DNA of 32,000 nucleotides from Candidatus Saccharimonadota bacterium (GTDB lineage Bacteria > Patescibacteriota > Microgenomatia > UBA1406 > GWC2-37-13), in contig CP066689.1 in the NCBI GenBank assembly GCA_016432445.1, forward strand, positions 930,001-962,000. Direction: 5' to 3'. The notes beneath the pieces were generated by a model, which was not told the DNA's origin, made no database searches, and saw nothing but the letters and a program-made list of their open reading frames with translations. Shown piece after piece: positions 6,365 to 32,000 of this stretch; position 1 is the stretch's first letter; each line of letters starts with the position of its first letter. Made by a program: the position numbers and the translations under genes.

Positions 6365-6436
6365 GCCCGGATGGCTCAGTGGTAGAGCGAGTTCTTGGTA
6401 AGAACTAGGCCGCGGGTTCGATTCCCGCTTCGGGCT
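6365..6436 (+). tRNA. tRNA-Thr, anticodon GGU
   Basis: Folded by hand. Acceptor stem GCCCGGA/TTCGGGC (one G-U pair), D stem GCTC/GAGC, anticodon stem AGTTC/GAACT with loop TTGGTAA (anticodon 6397-6399), T stem GCGGG/CCCGC with loop TTCGATT. No encoded CCA. Confidence 0.9.
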
Positions 6437-9400
6437 CAAGAGCTGACCAGACGACATCCATATCTTTTAAACGATATGACGGCATATAAGAAAAAACTTT
6501 CCCTTCGTCGAAGGAATATTCTTTATTAACATCTTTAATCCTCTTATCTATCGCCTTTTCAAACTCTCCACCAGCTCTGTTTGTTCTAATCGATGAGTTT
6601 TTAGAAACAGCTACCACATCAAAATTATTGCCGAGGGCGAATTTTTCCAAAACTCCCATTATTCCTGAAAATAAAGCGCCCTCGTCAACCGAATAGAGAT
6701 AAGTACTGGAAGGATTAAGTGAAGCCGTAAGTATTCTTTTTCCATTTTTATCAGTAAAGTGATGCAAAAGAACCAACCCCTGACATTGAAAATTTCCCGG
6801 ATCTTGAAAGACAAGCTGAAAATAATTTGACATGTCCCATAAATTTTTCTTTCCTCGGTCAGGATTATCTTTTGAGACACAGACTCCCCCTACCATTCTG
6901 GCATTGGCACTCTCTTTTGTTTTAGTGAAATAGGCATTTAAAACTTCCCGCTTTGTACCTTTTTCAGATTCAAACTTTTGTAGATTTCCTTCTGTAACTC
7001 CACGTTCTTCTTCAAAAATATCGATAAATCTTTGAGCGGTATAGGAAGCAAATTCCTCCCGGTCATATTCACCTTTTAAAATTTGCAGTTCAGAGTTTAG
7101 GGCTTCTTGAAGATTTATCTCTCCGAGATGAATAGATTTAGGATCGGTATCCTTCCCGGCAATCAATTTTAACGCTTCAAAGCTTCGTTCTCTTTGAGAT
7201 CTTAACATACCGTATAATTTCTTAGTATGAAGATTTGTAGAACTGGACGATTTTTCTGATAATCCGTGCGTCACTCCTTCATACTTTGCAATAATTTTTT
7301 GAACTTCTTCTTCTGAGTATTTCCTATTATTTCTTACCTCAAGAATTTTACGAACTTGGGTCACGAAATCTTGCGACATACCTAGTTTTTTTACCTGCAT
7401 TCTATTGAGTTTTTCCTGTCTGGACTGGCTTTGATTACTGCTTCCCAACATTGCGAAATATTTTTTCATCTGTTCTTCTACTTGCGGATTACCAAATCCG
7501 GCAGTCACCAATCTTTTATTAACTTCTTTGATTTTGTCTGAATAAAATTGGGATAGTTCACAAAGAAGTGCATAATCTCGATTGGAAGCCCCATATACAC
7601 GATCGTTAGTCCCTTGAATAAATCCGGCTATATCTTCAAAATAAGCAAATTCGTAAGTTATCATCAGGTCTTTTAATAAATTCAAATCTATTCCATTTTC
7701 ATGGTAAATAGATTCAGATAAGATTAAAAAAAAATTTTGTTCGACAGATAAAGAAGCCCTATCAATCCCTTCAAACACACCCCTTTTGACCAGTTCAGTA
7801 AAATATTGATCTATATTTACGCCTAAATTCTTTTTCAGCTGTTCTACATCCCCACCGGCTTCCTGAAGTTTTCTCTGAACCGCATAAATCGGTTTTTGCA
7901 AATCTATTAAAACCTGTGAATCCACCAATTCCCCCTGTCTCAACCTCACCAAAGACTGACTTAAAAGATCAATTTGATAACGAGGTTCTATTTTAAACTC
8001 AGCCAAATCCCCGCTTCTATCGCTACACTCTTCAACTCTTTCGTACGACCCCCATTGTCCACTATTATTTGGATAAACATGCCGCACCAAATCCTTAAAA
8101 AAAGGCACTTTCCTTTCTTCCTCAGAAATATCCGAAGAGGCTATTAGCTTATCGGATATGGAAAGTAATCTCGATATGTATATCTCCGCCTGCCCACTTT
8201 CCACCGCCTGCTTATAACCGCCGATTATTGCCGGGGAAACAGCTCTGAACCGGTTAACAAAATCCAGAAAAATTTTTCTATCTTCTGCCGTAATTACCCC
8301 CGCTTTAATGCAATCCACATATCCTTTAAAAATATCAAGAGATCTACTGCCTGAAATCCCAACTACTTGATTGATAAAATCAATATCCTTATTATCTTTT
8401 AAAAACATTTGTATATTCTCTGTAACAAATTCTTTGACAGGCTCCATCTTTTCATCAGTCATCCATGCGCATTTTTGAGGAACAGTTATAAAAAAATCTA
8501 ACCATACTGAAGACTGATCAGTTAATCCTCCATTGGTACCAATTTCCTTTAAAGCTTCTTCCCTAAATTTATCTTCCAATGATAGGCATTTATTCCAGAA
8601 GTTTTGTTCTTTTTCCGATAGTAAACTTATAATATTTTTATCACCAGAGCCGATATCCCCTCCTAATAATCGTTGCGCGTTATTTTTGGCTAAATAATTG
8701 ACCAGCAAAGAATAGTTGGGAACGCCTCCTTTTAAAAATTCATGCCCATAATTAAGAAAGAAAGTTTCTCCCAGCTTCATCGCATGATGCTCTTCAGCTC
8801 GGGAAGGATATCTAAAAAAATTAAATAGATATTTAACATTATATAAGTCATTAGGACAATTATCATCGTCAAAAAATGTTGTTAAGAATTTTAATTCCGT
8901 AGATTTCTCTCGACTTGAACTTTTTGGTAATCCTTTTGCATATTCCAAACCTTCTAATAAAAACGCATAAGTTAGTTGTTTTACCGGTTGTCCATTCTCT
9001 ACAGCCTCTTGAACATAGGTAGAAAATTTATCCTTATTATTTAGAAGAAACGCGGACACCTCATCATAACTCGTGTGACCTAACAAAAACTTCCAGAATT
9101 GATGATCGCTTTCTGGAAGTTTCTCAAGCTCAATACTTTCCCTGATATTGTCATAATCCAGCCTACCGTAGGTATAAAATTTTGAAAAAAGTTTTCTTCT
9201 TTCCTGGGGAGTTTCAGCTAGTCTGGCCGCCAAAACAAGCGCTTCTTTTATTGCTTTTTTATTTCCCGGCCTTAGAGCAATTTTTATACCTCCCAGATTA
9301 TAAGTATCTATCTCATCATTATTTTCAGCTTTAAAATAATCCTTTAAAAATCCCTCCAGTTCATCCGGCTCTCCCCCTTCACTACTACTTAATTTGGAAA

Positions 9401-12669: not shown

Positions 12670-12706
12670 GAGGAGATATCATGATCTTAACAAAAGCAAG
12701 CTTTTT

Positions 12707-12724
12707 TGACTCTAGCTAGAGTCA
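12707..12724. promoter_or_regulatory. perfect 18-bp palindrome between the two cassette-1 cistrons
   Basis: TGACTCTAG|CTAGAGTCA. Confidence 0.4.
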
Positions 12725-12783
12725 GGGAAGCTAAGCGAATAGCCGACAAGAAATCAACGATCGATCACGAAAGGAGTTCTAAA

Positions 12784-13686
12784 ATGGGTAAAGCAATTAA
12801 CCTTGCCCTACGCGTAATAGGTGCTGCAGTTGTCTTGTTTATCGCGGTCGCCCTCATCTGGGGGCCGTTAAACGACAACCTGCGGCCTACCAAAAGCTCG
12901 GCAGACGGGACAACTCCCGTTCCGACCGTAGCCTCTGTTTCGCCTACTGCTACACCGACTGCCACCAACACGCCCACGCCTGCAGCTTCCGCAACCGCTG
13001 TTCCGCCTACTACAACCCCTGCGCCCAAAGTCGCTGTACCCTGTCCGACAGACGAGGAAATGCGGCGAGCGCTTGAATTCGACCGGCTCGGCATCAAACC
13101 CGTGTTCACTGGCGAGGGAATCGTCTGGGATCCCTGTAAGTGGAATTGGCAAAGCAACGATCTTAATGCCGTTCCGATTACCCTCCCTGACGGTTGGCAA
13201 GCAACTACAACTCGCGGCAGTGATGGAGCAGTCCAGGTATGGAAAGGCCCGGCGCCAAAGATGGATGTCCGCGGCTTCACCCTCCGTTTCTTACGGCCCT
13301 ACGACAGACAGGAGTCTCGGTGGGCCCTCGACAATTGCGAACTCCTCACAAGGGAGAACGCTTTTGGCGAACGGCGTAACCCATCCTATCCAACCACTAA
13401 CGGCAATGTTTCTTGTGCTTCCAACCCACCCAAAAACTCTGGTTCCGGAAGCATCTCCAAATCCTGGCTTCGCGACAATGTCGGAGGCCGCGAGGACAAG
13501 TGGACCGAGCCTGACTGGTCTGGTGGCGCCTGGGTCTACAAGGACAAGGGAACCTTTGTCCCTATGAAATACCCTGGCTCCGGGGAGTTGACCGTTTGGA
13601 TCAGTGGTGGTCCAGTGATTATAACTTCAGCCAATGCCAGCCGACTCAATGGCCAAAGTTTCGACGAGGCTTCATTCAAGCCGTAG
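12784..13686 (+). CDS. TM-anchored protein with a Pro/Thr/Ala linker and a Cys/Trp-containing C-terminal domain (GC-rich cassette 1)
   Basis: AAGGAG lies 7 nt before the ATG at 12784, which I prefer to the track's TTG at 12706. MGKAINLALRVIGAAVVLFIAVALIW is the TM anchor. TPVPTVASVSPTATPTATNTPTPAASATAVPPTTTPAP is the linker. A ~200-aa domain of unknown family follows. Confidence 0.65.
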   Translation: MGKAINLALRVIGAAVVLFIAVALIWGPLNDNLRPTKSSADGTTPVPTVASVSPTATPTATNTPTPAASATAVPPTTTPAPKVAVPCPTDEEMRRALEFDRLGIKPVFTGEGIVWDPCKWNWQSNDLNAVPITLPDGWQATTTRGSDGAVQVWKGPAPKMDVRGFTLRFLRPYDRQESRWALDNCELLTRENAFGERRNPSYPTTNGNVSCASNPPKNSGSGSISKSWLRDNVGGREDKWTEPDWSGGAWVYKDKGTFVPMKYPGSGELTVWISGGPVIITSANASRLNGQSFDEASFKP

Positions 13687-13697
13687 CCGAACCGGCC

Positions 13698-13810
13698 AAT
13701 CTGAACCCTAATCTATCTGGGGAAGTGGAGTTGATCTCTTTCGCGATGCTTACGCATCGCAATCGCTTTACCGCGATTTAGAGTATCTTCTCCCCCTTCC
13801 CCCAGTTTTT
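13698..13810 (+). repeat. cassette 1 3' boundary: right inverted-repeat arm plus nested-hairpin trailer ending in a T-run
   Basis: AATCTGAACCCTAA (13698-13711). CTGGGGAAGTGGAG (13717-13730) pairs imperfectly with CTCCCCCTTCCCCCAG (13790-13805). This encloses GCGATGC-ttac-GCATCGC and AATCGC-tttacc-GCGATT, followed by TTTTT. It contains GCTTTACCGCGA (13765-13776), identical to 27856-27867. Confidence 0.65.
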
Positions 13811-20347: not shown

Positions 20348-22513
20348 ATGAAAACTCTCTCTCATCTCCAAGTTAGGAACCCTAAAGATGATGAAACGCC
20401 AATTGAGGCTTCAACTCAGATCTTCTCATCTCTAGTCCCCTATCCTTTTATACCTTTATGGAGGAGACTTCTTTTTTCGCCGCGGACTTATGCTTTTGAA
20501 ATTTTTCTTTTAGGCCAGACTGTTTATTTTTATATCTCTGCTCCCTCGGAAAACGAAACCTTAATCCAAAGTCTCGTTACTTCATCTTTTCCTCAATCGG
20601 TTCTTCAGAAAACCACTGACCCTATGGATATTGTTTTAAAATCCAAACATATTATGGCTGGAGAGGCTTGTCTTAACGCCGCTTTTTATTATCCGATTAA
20701 AACTTATATGGATTTTACGGATGTTGATCCAATGGCTGCACTTTTAGGTTTTTTAGCAAAACAACCTGCCAATATCAAAATGGCTGTCCAGATACTGATA
20801 ACCCCAGCTTCATTCCCGTGGCAAAGTCAAGCTGTAGCCGCAGCAGCACTACAGTCTTTAGATGAAGCCTCGGAAAAATATGTCCGTAATCCTCATCAGC
20901 TTTTGATTATGAGAAAAGCTTCATTTCAAGGAGGTAGAACTGCTATCCGCTTAGTTGTCGGTTCAGACACTGATAACACACCGCTTCTTCCTTATCTACA
21001 AAACCTGGCCGGAACTTTTGGCACTTTTTCTTTGGGTGAAGGCAATCAGTTTGTTTTTAAGCGACCTTTATTTACGAAACAGCGTTTCCTTTCCCGGGTT
21101 AAAAAAAGAAAGATAAATTATTTTGAACGGCAAAACCAGATCTTAAATGCTCAGGAAATCGCCAGTATTTGGCATCCTCCAGGGTTTCTACTGGCCGGAA
21201 TTAAAAATGTGGCCTGGGGTAAGACTCTGGCTGGAGAGCCGCCTGAAAATCTGCCTGTTTCTGAAGGTATTACCGATCAGGAAAAACAAGGCGTCAACTT
21301 TTTTGCTAAAACCGAGTTTAAAAACAAGGAAACTATTTTTGGTATTAAAGATGCCGACCGGCGCAAGCATGTTTACATTATTGGAAAAACCGGAGCTGGA
21401 AAATCTACCCTCATTGCCAACATGGCTATAGACGATATCAGAAAAGACAGGGGCATTGGTATTATCGATCCCCACGGCGATTTGTCAGAAACTATTCTTG
21501 ATTTTATTCCCAAAAGACGCCTTAATGATGTTATTTACCTTGAACCTTTTGATACAGAAAGACCTTTTTCTTTAAATGTCTTGGAAATTAAAAACAAACA
21601 GCATAAAGATTTAGTTGCTTCAGGCATTGTTTCCATTTTCAATAAGCTTTATAAAGAAAGCTGGGGACCTCGTCTGGAGTATATTCTAAGGAATGTTATT
21701 TTAACCCTGCTTGAAATACCCAATGCAACTCTCATTGATGTTTTATCGCTTCTAGCCCAAGAGGATTACCGCAGAAAAGTAGTCCGTGAGATTCAAGATC
21801 CAGTCATTAAAAATTTCTGGGAAAAAGAGTTTGCTAAGATGCCAGACCGTCTGAAAGCTGAAGCCATTTCCCCTATTCAAAATAAGGTCGGACAGTTTGT
21901 TTCCTCCAAAATGATCAGGAATATTATTGGTAAACCAAAATCTTCAATTGATCTTGAAGCCGCCATGAATGAAGGGAAAATACTGATCTTAAATCTCTCC
22001 CAGGGAAAACTTGGAGAAGATAATGCGGCTTTGCTTGGCGCCATGATGATCACTCAGATCCAGCTTGCGGCCATGAACCGTTCTTTTGTCAAAGAGGAAG
22101 ATAGAAAAGATTTTTTCCTTTATGTTGATGAGTTTCAAAATTTTGCCACCTCATCTTTTGTAAAGATCTTATCTGAAGCAAGAAAATATCGGTTATCTTT
22201 AGCTTTGGCTAACCAGTACATTGAACAGCTTGAAGAAGAAATTCAAAACGCAATATTTGGCAATGTCGGTACACTTATGTCATTTGTTGTGGGTGCCCGC
22301 GACTCGGAAATATTATCTAAAGAGTATGGCGAAATTTACACTGAAAGTGATTTAGTCTCCCTTGGAAAACATGAGATTGTTTTGAAGCTTTCTATCGATA
22401 ATATGACCTCTGCTCCATTCCCGGCCAAGACCCTTCCTCTTCCTGCCTTAAAAAATGAAAATAGAGAAAAAATAATCAAGTTATCGAAAGAAAAATATGG
22501 AAGGAAGGTATAA
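20348..22513 (+). CDS. TraD/VirD4/TraG-like (type IV coupling-protein-like) P-loop ATPase with a ~340-aa N-terminal domain of unknown function
   Basis: Walker A IIGKTGAGKST, Walker B FFLYVDEFQNF, and LALANQY. There is no N-terminal TM helix and no other T4SS gene in the window. Confidence 0.75.
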   Translation: MKTLSHLQVRNPKDDETPIEASTQIFSSLVPYPFIPLWRRLLFSPRTYAFEIFLLGQTVYFYISAPSENETLIQSLVTSSFPQSVLQKTTDPMDIVLKSKHIMAGEACLNAAFYYPIKTYMDFTDVDPMAALLGFLAKQPANIKMAVQILITPASFPWQSQAVAAAALQSLDEASEKYVRNPHQLLIMRKASFQGGRTAIRLVVGSDTDNTPLLPYLQNLAGTFGTFSLGEGNQFVFKRPLFTKQRFLSRVKKRKINYFERQNQILNAQEIASIWHPPGFLLAGIKNVAWGKTLAGEPPENLPVSEGITDQEKQGVNFFAKTEFKNKETIFGIKDADRRKHVYIIGKTGAGKSTLIANMAIDDIRKDRGIGIIDPHGDLSETILDFIPKRRLNDVIYLEPFDTERPFSLNVLEIKNKQHKDLVASGIVSIFNKLYKESWGPRLEYILRNVILTLLEIPNATLIDVLSLLAQEDYRRKVVREIQDPVIKNFWEKEFAKMPDRLKAEAISPIQNKVGQFVSSKMIRNIIGKPKSSIDLEAAMNEGKILILNLSQGKLGEDNAALLGAMMITQIQLAAMNRSFVKEEDRKDFFLYVDEFQNFATSSFVKILSEARKYRLSLALANQYIEQLEEEIQNAIFGNVGTLMSFVVGARDSEILSKEYGEIYTESDLVSLGKHEIVLKLSIDNMTSAPFPAKTLPLPALKNENREKIIKLSKEKYGRKV

Positions 22514-24201: not shown

Positions 24202-25056
24202 CAACATTCAACCTCTGGAGTTGAAAGTATTGTTGTAACGGTCTAGATCTTAATTTTTACCACTTCTTCGCATGCTTAATGAATTCTAAAGTTTTTTGAT
24301 AGTCTGCGTTCATAAGTACAAATCTTTCATATCGATCTTTGTCTTTCTGAAAAAGGTCAAGGATAAATTCATCATTACTCAACCTTTTTTTATTGTTAGA
24401 TAAATATTCTTTAAAAGAAGATAAATGATAATTTTCTAAATCCTTAATATTTTCGATTACGCTTGATGAATAAGGATTAAGATGAATATAACGGGAGACG
24501 TGTTTTAGTTGTTCGTCATTTAATATCCTCACTGATTTAAATTTAGGCAAAAAAATCGGACCTCTTCTTTTATTCTTAATATTGTAATACCTCGTAAATG
24601 AATTGAGAACGTCGGAAATAAATCGAGGGATACCTTCATCCGTTTTTTGCCTTAACAAAAAATGGAAGTGTGTAGGCATTAAGCAAAAAGCCATGATTTC
24701 TACTTTAAAATATTTTTTAAATGAAACCTCATTCATGAGATTTTCAACTATTTTTTTATCAGTTATTTTTAATTTAGAAAAACTTATTGCTGCCTTTAAG
24801 GAACGGTAGTAAGCAAGAAGTTGCATAAAAATATTTGTATTGCTGTCTCTAATTTTAAATATTACTCTGTGATCAATTGTCCTGTTAAAAACGTGATAGA
24901 TTGAATTGTTTAGAAAAGGTTCAAGTCGTTGAGGCATGAGAAAAATTTACCTCAATCATAACCTTAGTTACAACGGATTATCGTCAACAAAAGTGAGGAA
25001 AAAATCATATCTAGACTGTCTTGACAACCTTTTCAACTCCAGGGGTTGACATATTG
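24202..25056 (-). mobile_element. IS200-like / RAYT-type element: a Y1 HUH transposase gene flanked by ~47-bp inverted REP-like repeats
   Basis: The left repeat (24202-24248) and the reverse complement of the right repeat (25009-25056) share TCAACC, CTGGAGTTGAAA, TTGT and a terminal GTCTAGAT. Each holds a TCAAC/GTTGA hairpin. Confidence 0.75.
24257..24937 (-). CDS. IS200-like HUH-Y1 transposase (REP-associated tyrosine transposase type)
   Basis: HUH motif in CLMPTHFHFLLRQ and the catalytic-Tyr helix in VSRYIHLNP. At 226 aa it has a C-terminal extension, typical of RAYT-like rather than minimal IS200 TnpA. Confidence 0.85.
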   Translation of the reverse strand: MPQRLEPFLNNSIYHVFNRTIDHRVIFKIRDSNTNIFMQLLAYYRSLKAAISFSKLKITDKKIVENLMNEVSFKKYFKVEIMAFCLMPTHFHFLLRQKTDEGIPRFISDVLNSFTRYYNIKNKRRGPIFLPKFKSVRILNDEQLKHVSRYIHLNPYSSSVIENIKDLENYHLSSFKEYLSNNKKRLSNDEFILDLFQKDKDRYERFVLMNADYQKTLEFIKHAKKW

Positions 25057-25498: not shown

Positions 25499-25729
25499 AT
25501 GGAAAAAAGACCAACTATACCTTTGTGTGATTTATATATCGCCCGCCCGGATATAATCAAACAAGAGGATGGACCACTAAAGGGCAAAGATTTTTGCCAA
25601 ATTCAAGCTGTCCGTCAAGGCGAGAAAAAATGTTTTCACGCCCAAAGAAGAGGTTCAGGAGGAATGACACCACCAAATTGCCATAGAGTTTTAAGATCAA
25701 GAAGAATACCGGCACCTTGGAATAAGTAA
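25499..25729 (+). CDS. doubtful small basic Cys-containing ORF (76 aa)
   Basis: An extended -10 (TGgTATAAT) lies about 30 nt upstream. No SD and no family recognised. Composition is atypical (more GC than its flanks). It could be non-coding. Confidence 0.25.
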   Translation: MEKRPTIPLCDLYIARPDIIKQEDGPLKGKDFCQIQAVRQGEKKCFHAQRRGSGGMTPPNCHRVLRSRRIPAPWNK

Positions 25730-26899: not shown

Positions 26900-26952
26900 G
26901 TGGACTGGTATTATAACAAAAAAGATGGATTTAATCTACCGCTTAGTAATTG

Positions 26953-26981
26953 TTGTTAAACCTATAGTTATCTGATAGAAT
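26953..26981 (+). promoter_or_regulatory. sigma70-like promoter of GC-rich cassette 3
   Basis: TTGTTA (26953-26958), 17 nt, TAGAAT (26976-26981). Confidence 0.4.
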
Positions 26982-27042
26982 ATTTTACTGGAGATAAACA
27001 TAAGGTAAAAGCTGCCTTAAGGCTATTTCCAGTGATCTATTT

Positions 27043-27135
27043 GCACTTTGATAACTTGCGGCCCCGCTTAGCGGGGTTCAACGAGTGAGATTAATGTCGG
27101 ACAAATCTTTTGCCCTACCCTAGTCTCACTTGTTG
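27043..27135 (+). repeat. cassette 3 5' boundary: variant box with two local hairpins
   Basis: GCACTTTGATAAC (27043-27055). Hairpin CCCCGC-tta-GCGGGG (27062-27076) runs into GGGGTTCA. CAACGAGTGAGA (27079-27090) pairs with TCTCACTTGTTG (27124-27135); its single G-T position is only tolerated as G-U in a plus-strand RNA. Confidence 0.55.
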
Positions 27136-27165
27136 AGATAATAATGACGAAAGGAGGTAAATAAA

Positions 27166-27363
27166 ATGTGGAAGTGTACGAAGTGCGGACAAGAAGTCGA
27201 GGACCAAGGAAAACATCAGGTTAGGTTGGTTTGGTGTACTCGGTGTCACGATTATCATCAAGCCGACAAAATCGGCCCCAGTCACGCGTGCTACAGAGCA
27301 ATCTCTTGGGAAGAACACGGCGAAGACAAACTCTGCGAATCAGGCTCGTTCATCCACGTCTAA
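27166..27363 (+). CDS. small Zn-ribbon-like protein (GC-rich cassette 3)
   Basis: GAAAGGAGG lies 8 nt before the ATG. MWKCTKCGQ...WCTRCHDYH gives a CxxC...CxxC pattern. Confidence 0.5.
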   Translation: MWKCTKCGQEVEDQGKHQVRLVWCTRCHDYHQADKIGPSHACYRAISWEEHGEDKLCESGSFIHV

Positions 27364-27406
27364 GTAAGCTCGGCAAAGACAGATTAAACATAGAGGAAAA
27401 GAGGGG

Positions 27407-27778
27407 ATGTCTAAACCAACGATCAGTTTCAAACTATCTTGCCCCGACGGCTGCATAGTCATTCCTACAGGAACATCTTTAACTAAGGAGGAACAATGGG
27501 CTCTGGCTATTCTATACACCGCGGCAGCGCGAGCAAAAGAAGGCGGTTTGATTCCAATTGGACTCAGCCAGTTTTTGACACTGTCAAGTGAACCAGGAAC
27601 TCCGTGGACCAAAGTTCCCAACTGCCAAGAAAAAATAGCCGAAGCGATTTTCGGACTAGGCCAAAAACGCCTACTTAAGATTGTCGAAGGCGCCAAGGAT
27701 CTTTACATCGTTCCGCTCAGGACATTAGCCCATTTACTGAAAAAATGTACACTACAACCTCAACCAATTAACGTGTAA
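27407..27778 (+). CDS. hypothetical protein (GC-rich cassette 3)
   Basis: 123-aa ORF co-oriented with the Zn-ribbon ORF, with a GAGGA/GAGGGG purine run upstream. No family recognised. Confidence 0.45.
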   Translation: MSKPTISFKLSCPDGCIVIPTGTSLTKEEQWALAILYTAAARAKEGGLIPIGLSQFLTLSSEPGTPWTKVPNCQEKIAEAIFGLGQKRLLKIVEGAKDLYIVPLRTLAHLLKKCTLQPQPINV

Positions 27779-27855
27779 GGAAAGGAGTTGACCGCAAGAT
27801 CAAAGATAGGACACTGAAAAGTAAACTGAAGAAATATAGAAGCTACCAAGCCGTA

Positions 27856-27890
27856 GCTTTACCGCGACAACGTCGTCGCTTTCTTCTTTT
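27856..27890 (+). terminator. cassette 3 3' box plus intrinsic-terminator-like hairpin
   Basis: GCTTTACCGCGA (27856-27867) is identical to 13765-13776. It overlaps GCGAC-aacgtc-GTCGC, which is followed by TTTCTTCTTTT. Confidence 0.5.
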
Positions 27891-27923
27891 CACCCACTCA
27901 TTGTCCTATTTTTTTGGCCAAAA

Positions 27924-28724
27924 TTACCTGGGCACTTTTATAAGGGATTCTATAAATTGCTGAGTGCTTTTTGCTATTTCTTTTCTGTTAGATCGATTGA
28001 TGGCGTCAATTATCGCGCTCCCCACAATCACAATATCGACCTGCCTCTTAAGCAAATCAACATGCTCTTTTTTGGAAATTCCAAAACCAACCGCAACCGG
28101 GATCTTAAAGACTTCTTTTACTTTTTTAAGAAAAGCAACGACATTGGGATCAATCTTTTTTTGCGCTCCGGTTGTCCCCTGCCTTGCCATACAATAAACA
28201 AATCCTTTAGCTCCTTTTGCATTTTTTTTCAATCGCCCAATTGTGGAAACCGGCGAGATGACTCTTATGGCATATAAGTTATTTTTTTTACAAGCTGCAA
28301 AAAAATGCTCGCCGTGCTCTTCATCAATGGGCATATCAGGAATTATCAATCCCGAAACTCCGGCTTTTTTGGCATCTGTACAAAATCTTTTAACACCATA
28401 TTTAAAAACATTGTTGTAATAGGCCATAAAAAGTAAGGGTACCTCAACTTTTTTTTTAAGTTGAGCCGCTACCCGGAAAGCGTCTCTTACTCTAACCCCC
28501 TTCCTTAAGGCCTTCTCACAAGCTTTCATAATTGTCGGGCCATCGGCTAATGGATCAGAAAATGGAATCTGCAGTTCGATAAAGTCGGCACCGGCCCTCT
28601 CCATTGTCTCAACTAAACTAACGGTCTCAAATAAAGAAGGATAACCCACTACCACATGAGTCATTAAACCAATTCTTTTTTCCTTTTGTATTTTTCTTAG
28701 TCTTATATCAATACTGTTCATCAT
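27924..28724 (-). CDS. trpA: tryptophan synthase alpha chain
   Basis: ELQIPFSDPLADGPTI signature and GFGIS phosphate-binding loop. 266 aa. Confidence 0.95.
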   Translation of the reverse strand: MMNSIDIRLRKIQKEKRIGLMTHVVVGYPSLFETVSLVETMERAGADFIELQIPFSDPLADGPTIMKACEKALRKGVRVRDAFRVAAQLKKKVEVPLLFMAYYNNVFKYGVKRFCTDAKKAGVSGLIIPDMPIDEEHGEHFFAACKKNNLYAIRVISPVSTIGRLKKNAKGAKGFVYCMARQGTTGAQKKIDPNVVAFLKKVKEVFKIPVAVGFGISKKEHVDLLKRQVDIVIVGSAIIDAINRSNRKEIAKSTQQFIESLIKVPR

Positions 28725-28731
28725 TTTAAAA

Positions 28732-29946
28732 TTAAATTGATAACTGAGATTTTAAAAAATTAAAGAAATTTTTATCTTTAAAAGCTCGCGCTAAAATAAA
28801 AAGATCCTTATCTCCACGCCCTGAAATGTTAATAATGATCACTTTACTCTTGGAGAGTGTATGAGCAAGCTTAAGGGCGTAAGCTACCGCATGAGCTGAC
28901 TCAAGGGCTGGGATAATTCCTTCAGTTTTAGAAAGGACGCTTACCGCCTCAATCACTTCCTTATCGTTAACTGCTGCAAACTGCATTCTTTTTTTATCTC
29001 TAAGATAGACCAATTCCGGACCGATCCCGGCATAATCAAGACCAGCTGAGATACTATGAGTTTTTTGTATTTGGCCGTCATTATCCTGTAAGAAATATGA
29101 TTTAAAACCTTCAAGCACACCCACCGATCCGCCATTAAAACGCGAAGCATGCTGGCCGATTCTTTTTCCTTTTCCCCCTGCCTCTACTCCAATTAAATTG
29201 ACTAACTTTTCTTTTATAAACGGATAAAAAATTCCCATAGCATTACTTCCTCCTCCAACACATGCAATAATATAGTCAGGCATTTTCCCTTCAGCTTTTA
29301 TTATTTGTTTTTTAACTTCTTTTCCCACAACCGACTGGAAATCCCGGTTCATTATGGGATAAGGATGAGGACCCACAACTGATCCTAATACATAATGAGT
29401 TGAATCAACATTAGTTATCCAGTCTTTAATGGCGGCATTTACTGCGTCTTTTAAAGTCCTATTACCAAAAGCTACTGGCACTACTTTGGCACCTAACCTT
29501 TCCATTAAAAAAACATTTGGCCTTTGACGGTAAACATCAGTTTCTCCCATGTATACAGTGCAGGAAAAACCAAACTTAGCCGCAACCGTCGCTGTAGCCA
29601 CCCCATGCTGACCAGCGCCAGTTTCGGCAATTAACCGTTTTTTTCCTAACATGCGAGCAATCAGGGCTTGACCTATGCAGTGAGTTATCTTATGAGCGCC
29701 GGTATGATTTAACCCTTCATTTTTTAGGTAAATCTTTGCCCCTCCCAATTTTTCCGTCAGATTTTTAGCATAAGTTAACGGAGTCGGTCTGCCGGCAAAT
29801 GTTTGCAGGTAATAATGGACTTCTTTCTGAAAAGATTTATTTTTTTTAACTTTTTCATAAACCTTCTCTAACTCCTCCAAAGCCGGCATCAACATCTCCG
29901 GTACATACCTTCCACCATATTTTCCAAAATGTCCATGGTTTTTCAT
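28732..29946 (-). CDS. trpB: tryptophan synthase beta chain
   Basis: [10 protein letters not shown], the PLP-lysine motif LNHTGAHKI, and GGGSNAMG. 404 aa. Confidence 0.95.
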
Positions 29947-30188
29947 TACTTTTTTCCTCCTTTGAAAATATTAACGCACTTTGGAAAAGGTGTTGGTAAA
30001 ATAACATCCATTTCCACTTCTTCAATTATTCCATCAACTAAAGAAATTCTTGGCTGGCTTACTTTAGTTACATTTAAAAATGCAGTAACCATAGCTGCAT
30101 GATTTTTTAATAGTTGTTTTAGATCAACTTCAGGAAAAACAACATCTTCGATAGTTCCATCTATAAGTGATACTCTTTTTGTTTCCAT
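29946..30188 (-). CDS. small protein with an internal duplication, translationally coupled to trpB
   Basis: The stop overlaps the trpB start (TAATG). Two repeats: [19 protein letters not shown] and [18 protein letters not shown]. No family recognised. Confidence 0.5.
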
Positions 30189-30334
30189 ATTTTTTAAATT
30201 AAATTTATAATCTTATCCTCCTTCGCTCAGGCTCGCCTCGTGGTTTACATCCACGCAGTCGAAACTTCGCTTCGGTAGGATTTGCCTCTGTAATACTCAA
30301 CTGCACTTACGCTTGTTATCGTAAACAGAGGCAT

Positions 30335-30360
30335 AAAAAAACCCTCCTTTCGGAGGGTAG
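30335..30360 (-). terminator. rho-independent terminator (attenuator) in the trp leader
   Basis: On the minus strand: ACCCUCC-GAAA-GGAGGGU followed by UUUUUU. Confidence 0.7.
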
Positions 30361-30380
30361 CAACAGTCTAGCAATTCAAA

Positions 30381-30458
30381 TTAGTTACGCCAGCTGACAC
30401 CCTCCTTTAAAGAAGTTTGCCAATTGCGCCAATTTAATAAGTAAAAATAAATTTTCAT
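30381..30458 (-). CDS. candidate trp leader peptide (25 aa, 3 Trp codons)
   Basis: My minus-strand translation: ATG AAA ATT TAT TTT TAC TTA TTA AAT TGG CGC AAT TGG CAA ACT TCT TTA AAG GAG GGT GTC AGC TGG CGT AAC TAA = MKIYFYLLNWRNWQTSLKEGVSWRN. The ATG overlaps the yerC-like stop (ATGA). The ORF covers the segment that can pair with the 5' arm of the terminator. Confidence 0.5.
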   Translation of the reverse strand: MKIYFYLLNWRNWQTSLKEGVSWRN

Positions 30459-30718
30459 ATATTTTTAAATCTACCTTTTTTAATCTCGTTTGAACCTCTG
30501 GTTACAGTAGCTACACCTACTCCCAGTTTCTCGGCTATCTCATGCTGGGGAACGCCTTTTTTAAGCATTTTCACAATCTTCAATCTCCTGGAAAACTCTA
30601 TTAATTCTTTAGGAGTAAACAATCCATGAAAAAAATCAATCATCTCTCTTTCTGATTTAATCTTAAGAAAAATATCGATTAAATCTTTAAGTTTTCTATC
30701 AGAAACTTCATTAAACAT
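30455..30718 (-). CDS. YerC/YecD-type TrpR-like DNA-binding protein
   Basis: 87 aa. FFHGLFTPKELIEFSRRLKIVKMLKKGVPQHEIAEKLGVGVATVTRGS is the TrpR/YerC helix-turn-helix signature. Confidence 0.85.
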   Translation of the reverse strand: MFNEVSDRKLKDLIDIFLKIKSEREMIDFFHGLFTPKELIEFSRRLKIVKMLKKGVPQHEIAEKLGVGVATVTRGSNEIKKGRFKNI

Positions 30719-30761
30719 GATACTAGTATACTAGTAATGTAGTACATTTGTCAAATGTAAA

Positions 30762-30959
30762 TTATTTGGCAAGGCTGTTTATATCTATTGATGCAGGTAT
30801 AAGTGTAAATGGATTATACTGGGCAAAAAGAAAATAGGTCAGAAATCCTGTCAAAAGAACAATTATAGCAAGGCTAATATAAAAATATGTTTTGTAACTA
30901 GTATTAACCGCTCTTTTTACTTTAACTACTTTCTGTTTTTTTGTTTTAGTTTTTTTCAT
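30762..30959 (-). CDS. small basic single-TM protein
   Basis: Lys-rich N-terminus followed by one TM helix (YFYISLAIIVLLTGFLTYFLF). Confidence 0.45.
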   Translation of the reverse strand: MKKTKTKKQKVVKVKRAVNTSYKTYFYISLAIIVLLTGFLTYFLFAQYNPFTLIPASIDINSLAK

Positions 30960-31015
30960 TTTTCCTCCGGTATAAAATAATCATTGCATAAATTTTTTTA
31001 AATTTCAAGACATTT

Positions 31016-31465
31016 TTAAGTTAGTTCAGCTTTCGTCAATTCTCTTTTTATATCTTCTGGTAATTTTCCGGTAACTTCCTGTGATAGTTTATTTAATGGA
31101 TGTTTTATTCCTTCAAGACTTATGGCCATTACTTCGCTTAACCATTCTGTTGCATGTTCCACTTTATCTAAACCGTATTTTTTAATTAACTCTTCAGCTA
31201 ACTCGGGAGTTATTTTAAGATCAGGATCTTTAATCGTACTATTTAAAATATCTTCAGGTTTCAACTCTTGCTTTGTTCCTCCGTTTGTATTTAATGTTTT
31301 GCCTAAATCATTAAAAACCATCGGTCTAAACACTGATCTTAAGACATTTTTACGGCTGTCATCTAACGGATCTCCACTAGGAAGACCTCTCTTAAATACA
31401 GGTACCCTGTCTAGAGTAATATCTACCATCTGCCCCAGTGATAAGTTTTTTACTTCGGTCTCCAT
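31016..31465 (-). CDS. hypothetical protein
   Basis: 149-aa ORF. Its start overlaps the upstream ORF's end by 16 nt. No motif recognised. Confidence 0.5.
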   Translation of the reverse strand: METEVKNLSLGQMVDITLDRVPVFKRGLPSGDPLDDSRKNVLRSVFRPMVFNDLGKTLNTNGGTKQELKPEDILNSTIKDPDLKITPELAEELIKKYGLDKVEHATEWLSEVMAISLEGIKHPLNKLSQEVTGKLPEDIKRELTKAELT

Positions 31466-32000
31466 AATTGTAAATTAGCTCTCCTTATCTCTTTTATTGC
31501 CTTAATCGTCTCGGCTATCTTAGAGTATCCCTTAGAACCTTCTCCTGCTGTAATTTTCAGCTCTTGCTCTAAATATAACTGCATGTTTGAGAGTCGAGAG
31601 TCTCCTAGTTTATGCTCTCCATCTCCTATAATAAAATCCCGAAAAAATTGATTTGAAATCAAGTCATCTACGCGCCGCTGATAGTCAGTTAACTCATGTT
31701 CACCGGCACGATTTTCTCCTATCTTGGTAATTATCTGCAGTTTACCATCAGCTGTAGCAATATTACCCTGATCAAGATCAACTTCACTCTTTTGCTTCCC
31801 TATTAAATCAGCTACAAATTTTCTAAGCTGTTCATAAGAATCTTGATTATAAAGACCAACAACTTCTTGGTGAATAGCAGACTCTTGAACAGTAATTATA
31901 ACATTTCCTTTTGTATCTATTGTAATCTCTGGTTTATTTCCACAAATCCGTCCAACATTAAATCTATAGCTTACAGGAGTTAAAGATTGGGATGCTTGAA
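31450..32000 (-). CDS. hypothetical protein, 3' part (ORF open to the right edge)
   Basis: The track starts it at the TTG at 31662, but my translation stays open in the same frame up to position 32000 (QASQSLTPVSYRFNVGRICGNKPEITIDTKGNVIITVQES...). Confidence 0.55.
   Translation of the reverse strand, partial: QASQSLTPVSYRFNVGRICGNKPEITIDTKGNVIITVQESAIHQEVVGLYNQDSYEQLRKFVADLIGKQKSEVDLDQGNIATADGKLQIITKIGENRAGEHELTDYQRRVDDLISNQFFRDFIIGDGEHKLGDSRLSNMQLYLEQELKITAGEGSKGYSKIAETIKAIKEIRRANLQLWRPK

Follow-up and report, generated by a model that had tools for sequence, protein, structure and literature searches.

A likely ribosome-mediated tryptophan attenuator between a TrpR-family repressor gene and trpBA in a Microgenomates-like bacterium of the Candidate Phyla Radiation

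Contig CP066689.1 (GenBank assembly GCA_016432445.1) of Candidatus Saccharimonadota bacterium, placed by GTDB in the Microgenomatia (Patescibacteriota, part of the Candidate Phyla Radiation, CPR), carries a tryptophan operon in the 32,000-nucleotide (nt) stretch from position 930,001 to 962,000, hereafter the window. Read on the minus strand, to which the features below belong unless stated otherwise, this operon comprises a promoter, a repressor gene, a short leader open reading frame (ORF), a terminator, a spacer, ORF80, trpB and trpA. The regulated genes span 27924..30188 and are ORF80 (30188-29946), trpB (29946-28732) and trpA (28724-27924); profile matches identify TrpB (TIGR00263, 604.8 bits) and TrpA (PF00290, 248 bits). 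The comparisons and folds described here support well, in silico, the reading that the leader and terminator are likely to form a ribosome-mediated leader-peptide transcription attenuator that senses charged tRNA-Trp.

The operon is preceded by a putative sigma-70-like promoter (30725..30754) composed of TTGACA (30754-30749), an 18-nt spacer and TATACT (30730-30725). It matches 11 of 12 positions and is the best promoter-like match within 27500-32000. As the -10 box ends about 7 nt 5′ of the repressor ATG, the repressor-operon mRNA may be leaderless. A putative TrpR-type operator, GTACTACATTACTAGTAT (30721..30745, no strand assigned), fits GNACT-N8-AGTNY and conforms to the TrpR half-site rule of GNACT with an 8-bp spacer (PMC9413887). 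The perfect palindrome TACTAGTATACTAGTA (30736-30721) overlaps both this operator and the -10 box. Of 77 distinct relatives, 71 carry the motif (at most two mismatches) in the interval from the -35 box to the repressor start. Tandem half-sites are frequent among these operators.

The first cistron (30455..30718) encodes an 87-amino-acid (aa) member of the TrpR family, which matches Pfam PF01371 at 74 bits (E = 1e-20, cut-off 27) and whose matches in the PDB are TrpR-like proteins and Escherichia coli TrpR. It scores 56.7 bits against NCBIfam TrpR (TIGR01321, cut-off 67.25) and 40.2 bits against YerC/YecD (TIGR02531, cut-off 42.2); by sequence it is thus nearer to TrpR than to YerC/YecD, while formally belonging to neither NCBIfam family. 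The initial annotation had called the gene TrpR-like and also yerC, the latter a misleading name given the higher TrpR score and the TrpR-type operator in front of it; Bacillus subtilis YerC is the histidine repressor HisR (PMC9413887). Because of this operator at its own promoter and the ranking of the two scores, the gene most likely encodes an autoregulated repressor with tryptophan as its predicted ligand.

The leader ORF, MKIYFYLLNWRNWQTSLKEGVSWRN (30381..30458), consists of 25 codons and a stop codon (30383-30381), and its ATG (30458-30456) overlaps the repressor TGA (30457-30455) as ATGA. It contains three UGG codons, namely W10 (30431-30429), W13 (30422-30420) and W23 (30392-30390). 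The initial annotation had described this leader, its three UGG codons and the ATGA overlap correctly, and had judged three Trp residues in 25 to be notable. The figures bear this out: Trp accounts for 70 of 7424 residues (0.94%) across 14 long ORFs of the window, a background from which at least three Trp residues in 25 are expected with a probability of 0.0017, and the leader is the sole ORF with at least three among the 164 ATG-initiated ORFs of 15-40 codons in the window.

Two alternative RNA structures had been proposed for this region, and both are recovered. In the antiterminator (30352..30405), segment 2, GGAGGGU(G) at 30405-30398, pairs with segment 3, (CU)ACCCUCC at 30360-30352; the claimed 8-bp complementarity between GGAGGGUG, which lies in codons 18-21, and CUACCCUCC is exact and includes one G-U pair. 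Further pairs between 30396-30386 and 30372-30361 extend this helix. The duplex between the segment 2 region and the terminator arm has an energy of -15.2 kcal/mol, compared with -8.0 in dinucleotide shuffles (z = -3.2; 1 of 200 as good). The intrinsic terminator, segments 3:4 (30335..30358), is ACCCUCC-GAAA-GGAGGGU followed by a U run; a terminator scan gives a stem at 30358..30341 with seven pairs, five of them G-C. The U run lies at 30340-30335. Scan and fold agree on a strong terminator that shares CCCUCC with the antiterminator, as had been stated. To this scheme can be added a hairpin between segments 1 and 2 (anti-antiterminator; UGGCA..CUUCU-UUAA-AGGAG..UGUCA, 30422-30395), so that all four segments of the classical attenuator are present in the window. 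The W13 codon sits in the 5′ arm of the 1:2 hairpin, and a ribosome stalled at W10 or W13 covers its 5′ half.

Folding was repeated with an assumed ribosome footprint of -15 to +14 nt around the A site masked. The minimum free energy (MFE) structure of the free RNA contains the 1:2 hairpin and the terminator, and the 131-nt stretch folds with z = -2.8 relative to shuffles. With a ribosome at W10 or W13, the MFE structure is the extended antiterminator and no terminator forms, even though the full terminator sequence is available. Placing the ribosome on W23 or on the stop codon restores the terminator. Masked folding thus reproduces both predictions of the initial annotation, antitermination on stalling at W10 or W13 and termination when the ribosome reaches the stop. 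Since the modelled outcomes divide in this way, it is plausible that W10 and W13 are the regulatory codons and that W23 does not derepress.

The proposed mechanism would begin with transcription from the operator-controlled promoter, the repressor cistron being transcribed in every case. A ribosome that has completed the repressor gene would re-initiate at the overlapping AUG (AUGA) and read the 25-codon leader. When Trp-tRNA is plentiful, it would pass W10 and W13 and reach W23 or the stop codon; because it would then occupy, or have just passed, segment 2 (GGAGGGU), segment 3 (ACCCUCC) would pair with segment 4, and RNA polymerase would terminate at the U run (30340-30335). When Trp-tRNA is scarce, the ribosome would stall with W10 or W13 in the A site, its footprint on segment 1. 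As segment 2 would thereby be left exposed, it would pair with segment 3, block the terminator and let transcription run into ORF80-trpB-trpA. With segment 3 so engaged, the GGAGG of segment 4 would be released as well; as it lies 7-8 nt 5′ of an AUG, a translational layer is possible. Together with the TrpR-type operator, such an attenuator would amount to E. coli-style repression and attenuation in one transcription unit.

Relatives of the locus were gathered with the repressor protein as query, which yielded 13 loci from one-genome-per-species contigs (Microgenomates, Levybacteria, Roizmanbacteria and other metagenome-assembled genomes of Patescibacteria) and 80 metagenome loci. These 93 CPR/Microgenomates loci, designated by L numbers, provide 45 distinct sequences that share the window layout, each of them having UGG codon(s) in frame, both segments 1 and 2, a stop codon and a terminator. 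Counted by region, a terminator-like hairpin lies within 260 nt downstream of the repressor gene in 48 of 76 distinct regions, and a Trp-containing ORF ends 5′ of it in 46 of these 48. The usual form is ACCUCC-loop-GGAGGU-U6, with GCCGCCC/GGGCGGC, CCCCGC/GCGGGG, AGCUCCC/GGGAGCU and other pairs as variants.

Separate leaders mostly begin within about 10 nt of the repressor stop. One such leader, MITKTIIILLNWWWKKVYPRCGWRF in L004 (motif LLNWWWKKVYPRCGWRF), has the ATGA overlap seen in the window, and the leader MINQNKITNWQTWQTPKEDLL of L084 (motif ITNWQTWQTPKEDLL) belongs to the class nearest to the window's NWRNWQTSLKEG. Others read ..NNWWRKVYPRSEWRF (L008), MKNLINDKLSNWQYLLNREVVSTVF (L059) and IWQSWQ..KEDLL (L022, L027 and L067). 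In seven relatives (L005, L024, L030, L043, L044, L073 and L074) the leader is fused to the repressor, the Trp codon lying inside a C-terminal extension of the repressor ORF; one such extension ends in ..GRFSSITEKGWRPPQAGD directly before the stop codon. The number of Trp codons ranges from one to four across the family, and many relatives carry (UGG)2-3 in frame.

A frame test on the 45 distinct elements asked whether the UGG is a codon: its frame stays open for at least eight codons upstream in 45 of 45, whereas the two alternative frames do so in 16 and 18. The median open stretch is 26 codons in the UGG frame and 6 and 7 in the others (Wilcoxon p about 1e-8), and an ATG lies inside the open stretch in 44 of 45 elements, compared with 1 and 9. 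The UGG frame closes 4-17 codons past the UGG in all 45, the other frames after 2 to 472 codons. Spacing is similarly constrained. In 41 loci segment 2 starts 13-24 nt (median 18) past the first base of the last regulatory UGG, which places segment 1 inside and segment 2 just outside the footprint of a stalled ribosome. The leader stop codon follows the UGG by 12-48 nt, and the terminator arm follows the stop by 23-49 nt. The initial annotation had proposed to abandon the attenuator should the leader ORF or its Trp codons not be conserved in relatives; both are kept in the 45 distinct elements, at a fixed distance from the switch.

The helices covary. The region past the UGG pairs with the terminator 5′ arm beyond dinucleotide shuffles (mean z = -2.9; z < -2 in 27 of 43 loci), and cognate combinations pair better than non-cognate ones (-11.9 versus -8.9 kcal/mol; 0 of 10000 permutations as good), so the complementarity is locus-specific. 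When the sequences are aligned by MAFFT alone, pairing in the antiterminator holds for 75.5% of cells and there are 27 double changes, compared with 13.0 ± 4.1 in shuffles (1 of 500 as high); controls with the helix slid along the alignment score 0.06-0.19 versus 0.30. The terminator is paired in 87.1% of cells of this alignment (0 of 500 shuffles as high) and is the only helix that RNAalifold recovers from it, helix 1:2 being out of register and weakly supported (35 of 500 shuffles as high). Helix 1:2 becomes clear after alignment to a model.

In the model-based alignment of the 45 distinct rows, helices 1:2 and 3:4 are together paired in 84.9% of cells, with compensatory changes at 12 of 13 pairs and a score of 0.355 versus 0.220 (0 of 500 shuffles as high). 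Taken singly, helix 1:2 is paired in 75.8% of cells (compensatory changes at 5 of 6 pairs) and the terminator helix in 92.3% (7 of 7 pairs). Helix 2:3, which is outside the model, scores 0.263 versus 0.199 (0 of 500 shuffles as high). Compensatory changes of the kind that the initial annotation had suggested looking for are therefore found in both the terminator and the antiterminator.

A covariance model, R1, was built from 40 relatives with the window left out. Its top match in the 32-kb window is the attenuator itself (30334-30428, minus strand), with 34.8 bits and E = 3.5e-4 (filters off), over the full length of the model (positions 1-92). The runner-up, at 25503-25605, is not significant (17.6 bits, E = 0.29). 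Rfam families at the gathering score, searched against the whole window, give no Trp leader (RF00513), no T-box and no other match at the attenuator; a search of 29900-30900 with E up to 10 returns chance-level matches, neither RF00513 nor RF00230 among them. The conserved UGG codons, the covarying helices and the masked folds support the attenuator reading put forward initially. The window has an ORF with Trp codons, a terminator ahead of the structural genes, an antiterminator exclusive with it and, under the assumed footprint, the geometry of a stall-dependent switch, which are features of this functional class.

The 3′ arm of the terminator adds a second possible level of control. In the window its GGAGG lies 7-8 nt 5′ of an AUG at 30334, directly past the U run. 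A GGAGG-like 3′ arm, resembling a Shine-Dalgarno (SD) sequence, occurs in 35 of 43 relatives, and an ATG or GTG stands directly past the U run in 18 of these 35 and in 0 of the 8 others, a pattern that suggests that the terminator hairpin also gates translation. In L023 and L089 this ATG is the start of the downstream gene. Control might then be purely translational, as in erm and cat leaders, with the 3:4 hairpin hiding the SD sequence of the AUG past the U run until a stalled ribosome opens it. This explanation is unlikely: an unbroken U run stands right behind a G+C-rich stem in every member, including the eight without an SD-like arm, and the AUG of the window opens just a 29-codon ORF, absent in L030, ORF80 starting about 150 nt further on. 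Translational control is likely to be an extra layer that is compatible with attenuation, not a replacement for it.

Attenuation would also account for which genes and codons go together. The first genes past the element encode TrpB-like proteins in nine loci, anthranilate synthase I/TrpE in six and TrpD-like glycosyltransferase-3 proteins in four; others encode DAHP synthase, a class-I Trp/Tyr tRNA synthetase with an editing domain (TrpRS), an Asp/Glu racemase, a GNAT acetyltransferase and several unannotated families. As judged by annotation, the identified regulated genes are mostly Trp-related. In L007 (4372-6042) and L030 (3126-4721), the first gene past the Trp attenuator encodes a protein of a family, about 530-556 aa long, that matches neither Pfam nor NCBIfam; this family may have an unrecognised Trp-related function. 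Stand-alone members with their own promoters and no repressor gene occur in L056 (2668-2798), L036 (1794-1910) and L040 (4785-4913). The leaders ..TSWHYYS.. (L056) and ..NYYWHL.. (L036) precede an aminotransferase gene, and ..VWFSFYF.. (L040) stands before a small ORF in a locus that also holds pheS, further downstream. The sensor codons predicted in these stand-alone members thus track the regulated gene. A match between codons and pathway is what a sensor read by the ribosome predicts, and a motif recognised by RNA or protein does not predict it.

The closest relative, L019, has a different device at the same place. Its TrpB is 82% identical and its ORF80 homologue 42% identical to those of the window, and between its repressor gene and ORF80-trpB lies a T-box with a very short Stem I (1035-1270), which matches RF00230 over the whole length of the model with 45.6 bits (E = 3.9e-9, 311 nt searched), under the gathering score of 93. 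The T-box motif GGUGGCACC is also found downstream of the repressor gene in L029, L031, L040 and L081. Miniature T-box-like leaders combine GAUCyGG..GGUUGGAACyrGG with GGUGGCACC, UGG being the likely specifier, and all are under the Rfam gathering score. L029 and L031 give a partial, sub-threshold match (L031, 17.5 bits, E = 0.07) and are T-box-like at most. Because the T-box of L019 occupies the position of the window attenuator, the site past the repressor gene appears to be a point of tRNA-Trp-sensing attenuation in this lineage, served by two interchangeable devices.

These T-box-like leaders also lend some colour to the view that a factor recognises the conserved UGGC(A/G) and its hairpins, whether uncharged tRNA-Trp through a minimal T-box-like UGGN:NCCA contact, or an RNA-binding protein such as an analogue of TRAP or the TrpR-family protein itself. 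UGGC would suit a T-box bulge for a tRNA with discriminator base G, and leaders of the T-box type stand at the same position in L019, L029, L031, L040 and L081. Recognition of this kind is nonetheless very improbable. The UGG lies 5′ of segment 1 and not in an antiterminator bulge, no T-box match is found in the window with E up to 10, and the frame of the UGG is always open, contains an ATG and soon reaches a stop. Furthermore, in-frame (UGG)2-3 recur in many relatives, and Phe, Tyr or His codons join UGG when the regulated gene changes. In the B. subtilis trp leader, the triplets bound by TRAP are spaced by 2-3 nt and overlap the antiterminator. TRAP needs an array of about 9-11 (G/U)AG triplets (PMC3064811); at most three consecutive repeats occur in 30181-30760, and TRAP-type control of the window was rejected for want of such an array there.

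Less likely still, in our estimation, is an ordinary constitutive terminator of the repressor gene, with a Trp-rich ORF and complementarity that arose by coincidence and trpBA expressed by leaky read-through or from its own promoter. A terminator behind a gene is unremarkable, and segment 1 of the window is weak. The ORF, the position of the UGG, the position of the stop and three covarying helices are, however, kept in 45 distinct sequences; the complementarity is locus-specific and the downstream genes are mostly Trp genes. A sigma-70-specific scan of the minus strand between the terminator and ORF80 finds no promoter-like site. The initial annotation had conceded that the hairpin might be simply the yerC terminator; it does end the repressor transcript, but would do so conditionally. 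The remaining alternative, a TnaC-like arrest peptide whose sequence stalls the ribosome together with free tryptophan, is scarcely credible, for although peptide motifs recur in subsets (e.g. NWQ, YPRSGW and KEDLL) and relatives show strong conservation of another class of leader (..EGQGLVW..), UGG alone is invariant across the family, the other residues changing freely with the helices that their codons form. Moreover, a stall induced by free Trp would turn on biosynthetic genes at high Trp, contrary to what trpBA, trpE or trpS would need.

Several observations weigh against attenuation in the window. Its copy is the lowest-scoring among the R1 matches listed, and thus the most diverged member found. 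Its CUUCU:AGGAG pairing in segment 1, which includes a G-U pair, is weak, and its two regulatory Trp codons are not adjacent (W-R-N-W). Of 41 relatives, 24 have a single Trp codon, which makes for lower sensitivity than the tandem codons in E. coli trpL. There is no SD sequence 5′ of the leader AUG, so that translation is assumed to occur by termination-reinitiation. Untranslated RNA that reaches just the terminator loop folds as the antiterminator; on this model, untranslated transcripts may read through, unlike those of E. coli, and should be rare because the leader start overlaps the repressor stop. The promoter scan, being specific for sigma-70, cannot rule out an internal promoter 5′ of ORF80. 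Finally, about 150 nt of structured, G+C-richer RNA between the terminator and ORF80 is not explained by the attenuator model.

A broader reading, to which we give an even chance, treats the repressor gene and attenuator as one translationally coupled sensor and the CCUCC/GGAGG architecture as a general chassis for other pathways. The Trp codons may be read by ribosomes fresh from the repressor ORF, and in the seven relatives with fused leaders these codons still lie within it, so that the repressor cistron itself may serve as the leader peptide. The chassis may likewise have been reused with Phe, Tyr and His codons, be exchangeable with a miniature T-box at orthologous sites and act at two levels through the SD arm. 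Should this broader reading hold, it would provide the earliest evidence that CPR bacteria exert control by coupling transcription to translation.

The spacer behind the terminator (30215..30334), part of the 5′ untranslated region of ORF80-trpBA, folds at -48.9 kcal/mol (z = -5.9). The fold comprises hairpin A (30332-30284) and a long imperfect hairpin B (about 30281-30216) with the core UUCGnCUGCGUGGnnGUAnnCCnCGnG...CGAAGGAGG; the 29-codon upstream ORF opened by the AUG past the U run extends over 30334-30245. Hairpin B is 77% identical in L030 (2985-3112) and recognisable in L045 (826-905), with some compensatory pairs, and in both it follows right behind the attenuator, ahead of differing genes. 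The two-hairpin element, hairpin B included, has no Rfam match. A mobile repeat was considered and rejected: the window holds no second copy of the element, and in about 485 kb of locus sequence it recurs in L030 and L045 alone. Three Logan contigs identical to the window, found by exact-protein look-up (L001-L003), end about 209 nt past the repressor gene, three independent assemblies thus breaking at about window position 30246, inside hairpin B. These breaks may reflect strain variation or an assembly problem at the structured element.

ORF80 has homologues by position in L019 (1330-1569), L059 (3416-3703) and L051 (549-740). Identity among the four loci is 28-42%, and in all of them ORF80 abuts or overlaps the trpB start. 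The protein contains an internal duplication of (R/K)xSLxDGxxExV. It has no Pfam or NCBIfam match, and a word-indexed search of 5.8 billion proteins returned itself alone.

A third kind of leader occupies the first 120 nt or so past the repressor stop in L006, L012, L020, L047, L061, L064, L065, L066, L077 and L087. It has ORFs such as MERFNETNINTGASGLSKEGQGLVWLLKK, a stretch conserved at the nucleotide level (CAGGGGUUAGUUUGG) and nested hairpins, and no U-run terminator; in L065, TrpE follows directly. This kind, marked by CAGGGGUUAGUUUGG, may be a translational switch or an arrest peptide.

Elsewhere in the window, near the runner-up match of R1, the mini-ORF MAIWWCHSS (25655-25684, minus strand), with tandem Trp codons, lies between a prephenate-dehydrogenase-like and a PNPOx-like gene. 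It was rejected as a second attenuator, as no terminator stands behind it and the PNPOx gene has its own promoter (TTGACT-17 nt-TATAAT), and is probably a chance occurrence. ORFs for a TraG/TrwB-like type IV coupling protein and an IS200-like Y1 transposase, at 20348-22513 and 24257-24937, lie a few kb from the trp genes and hint at nearby mobile DNA. Two islands are richer in G+C (about 35% elsewhere): 12700-13700 (50%), with ORFs on both strands, among them a 326-aa ORF without a Pfam match, and 27000-27900 (44%), where two small ORFs on the plus strand, one Cys-rich of 65 aa and one of 123 aa, run towards trpA in convergent orientation. No RNA family match was found in these islands, including 26900-27900 past trpA. 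A tRNA scan of the window gives a single tRNA, tRNA-Thr at 6365-6437.

CPR bacteria (Patescibacteria) are uncultured and have genomes of about 1 Mb, and to our knowledge almost nothing is known of their gene regulation. A literature search found no account of attenuators or T-boxes in them, which is not proof of novelty. An attenuator supported by covariation would show that these cells rely on tight coupling of transcription and translation, and that they monitor tRNA-Trp charging to time indole salvage by TrpBA, which bears on their dependence on community metabolites. The family's variants, namely repressor-fused leaders, one to four Trp codons, T-box replacements and the SD arm, offer material on how sensitive such a switch needs to be.

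Among the closest known systems is E. coli trpL (RF00513), which likewise has a short leader with Trp codons, segments that pair as 1:2, 2:3 and 3:4, a terminator before the structural genes and a stalled ribosome that covers segment 1. E. coli also has a TrpR-family repressor whose GNACT-N8-AGTNC operator overlaps the promoter, so the window would unite the two tiers of E. coli control in a single operon of operator, repressor gene, coupled leader, terminator and salvage genes. It differs in having no sequence or structure match to RF00513, which places it outside that RNA family. Its leader lies downstream of the repressor gene, in the same operon and coupled to it, and not at the 5′ end of the transcript. 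Its Trp codons are separated (W-R-N-W) and most relatives have one; its helices are built on CCUCC/GGAGG, and segment 4 can double as an SD sequence. In place of trpEDCBA, the salvage genes trpB and trpA alone are controlled, in a CPR host.

The Chlamydia trachomatis trpRBA operon shares the order of trpR, a regulatory intergenic region, trpB and trpA in a reduced genome that salvages just indole. A TrpL leader with alternative hairpins had been predicted there; it has 59 aa, lacks the usual features and was judged a poor, unvalidated attenuator, and trpRBA is controlled by an internal promoter and the iron repressor YtgR (PMC7755916). The window differs in its short leader, in covariation across about 45 sequences and in that no internal promoter-like site was found, and would be a well-supported counterpart to the long-debated chlamydial TrpL. 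T-boxes with a Trp specifier (RF00230) are likewise transcription attenuators that report tRNA-Trp charging through a choice between antiterminator and terminator, and the one in L019 has the identical position between the repressor gene and ORF80-trpB. A T-box, however, binds uncharged tRNA directly through Stem I, a specifier loop and a UGGN bulge, whereas the window lacks these and would sense charging through a translating ribosome.

The trp leaders of Actinobacteria were likewise identified through comparative genomics (PMC1262725). Together with other amino-acid leader attenuators (his, phe, leu and pheST) they belong to the same mechanism class, and relatives here carry Phe, Tyr and His leaders; the phylum and the RNA sequence family are different. 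We know of no coupling or fusion to a repressor cistron in these attenuators. The mechanism proposed for the window is therefore of a known kind; what the sequences point to as new is the host lineage, the RNA family, the coupling or fusion of leader and repressor, a terminator arm capable of acting as an SD sequence and the exchange with a T-box at an orthologous site.

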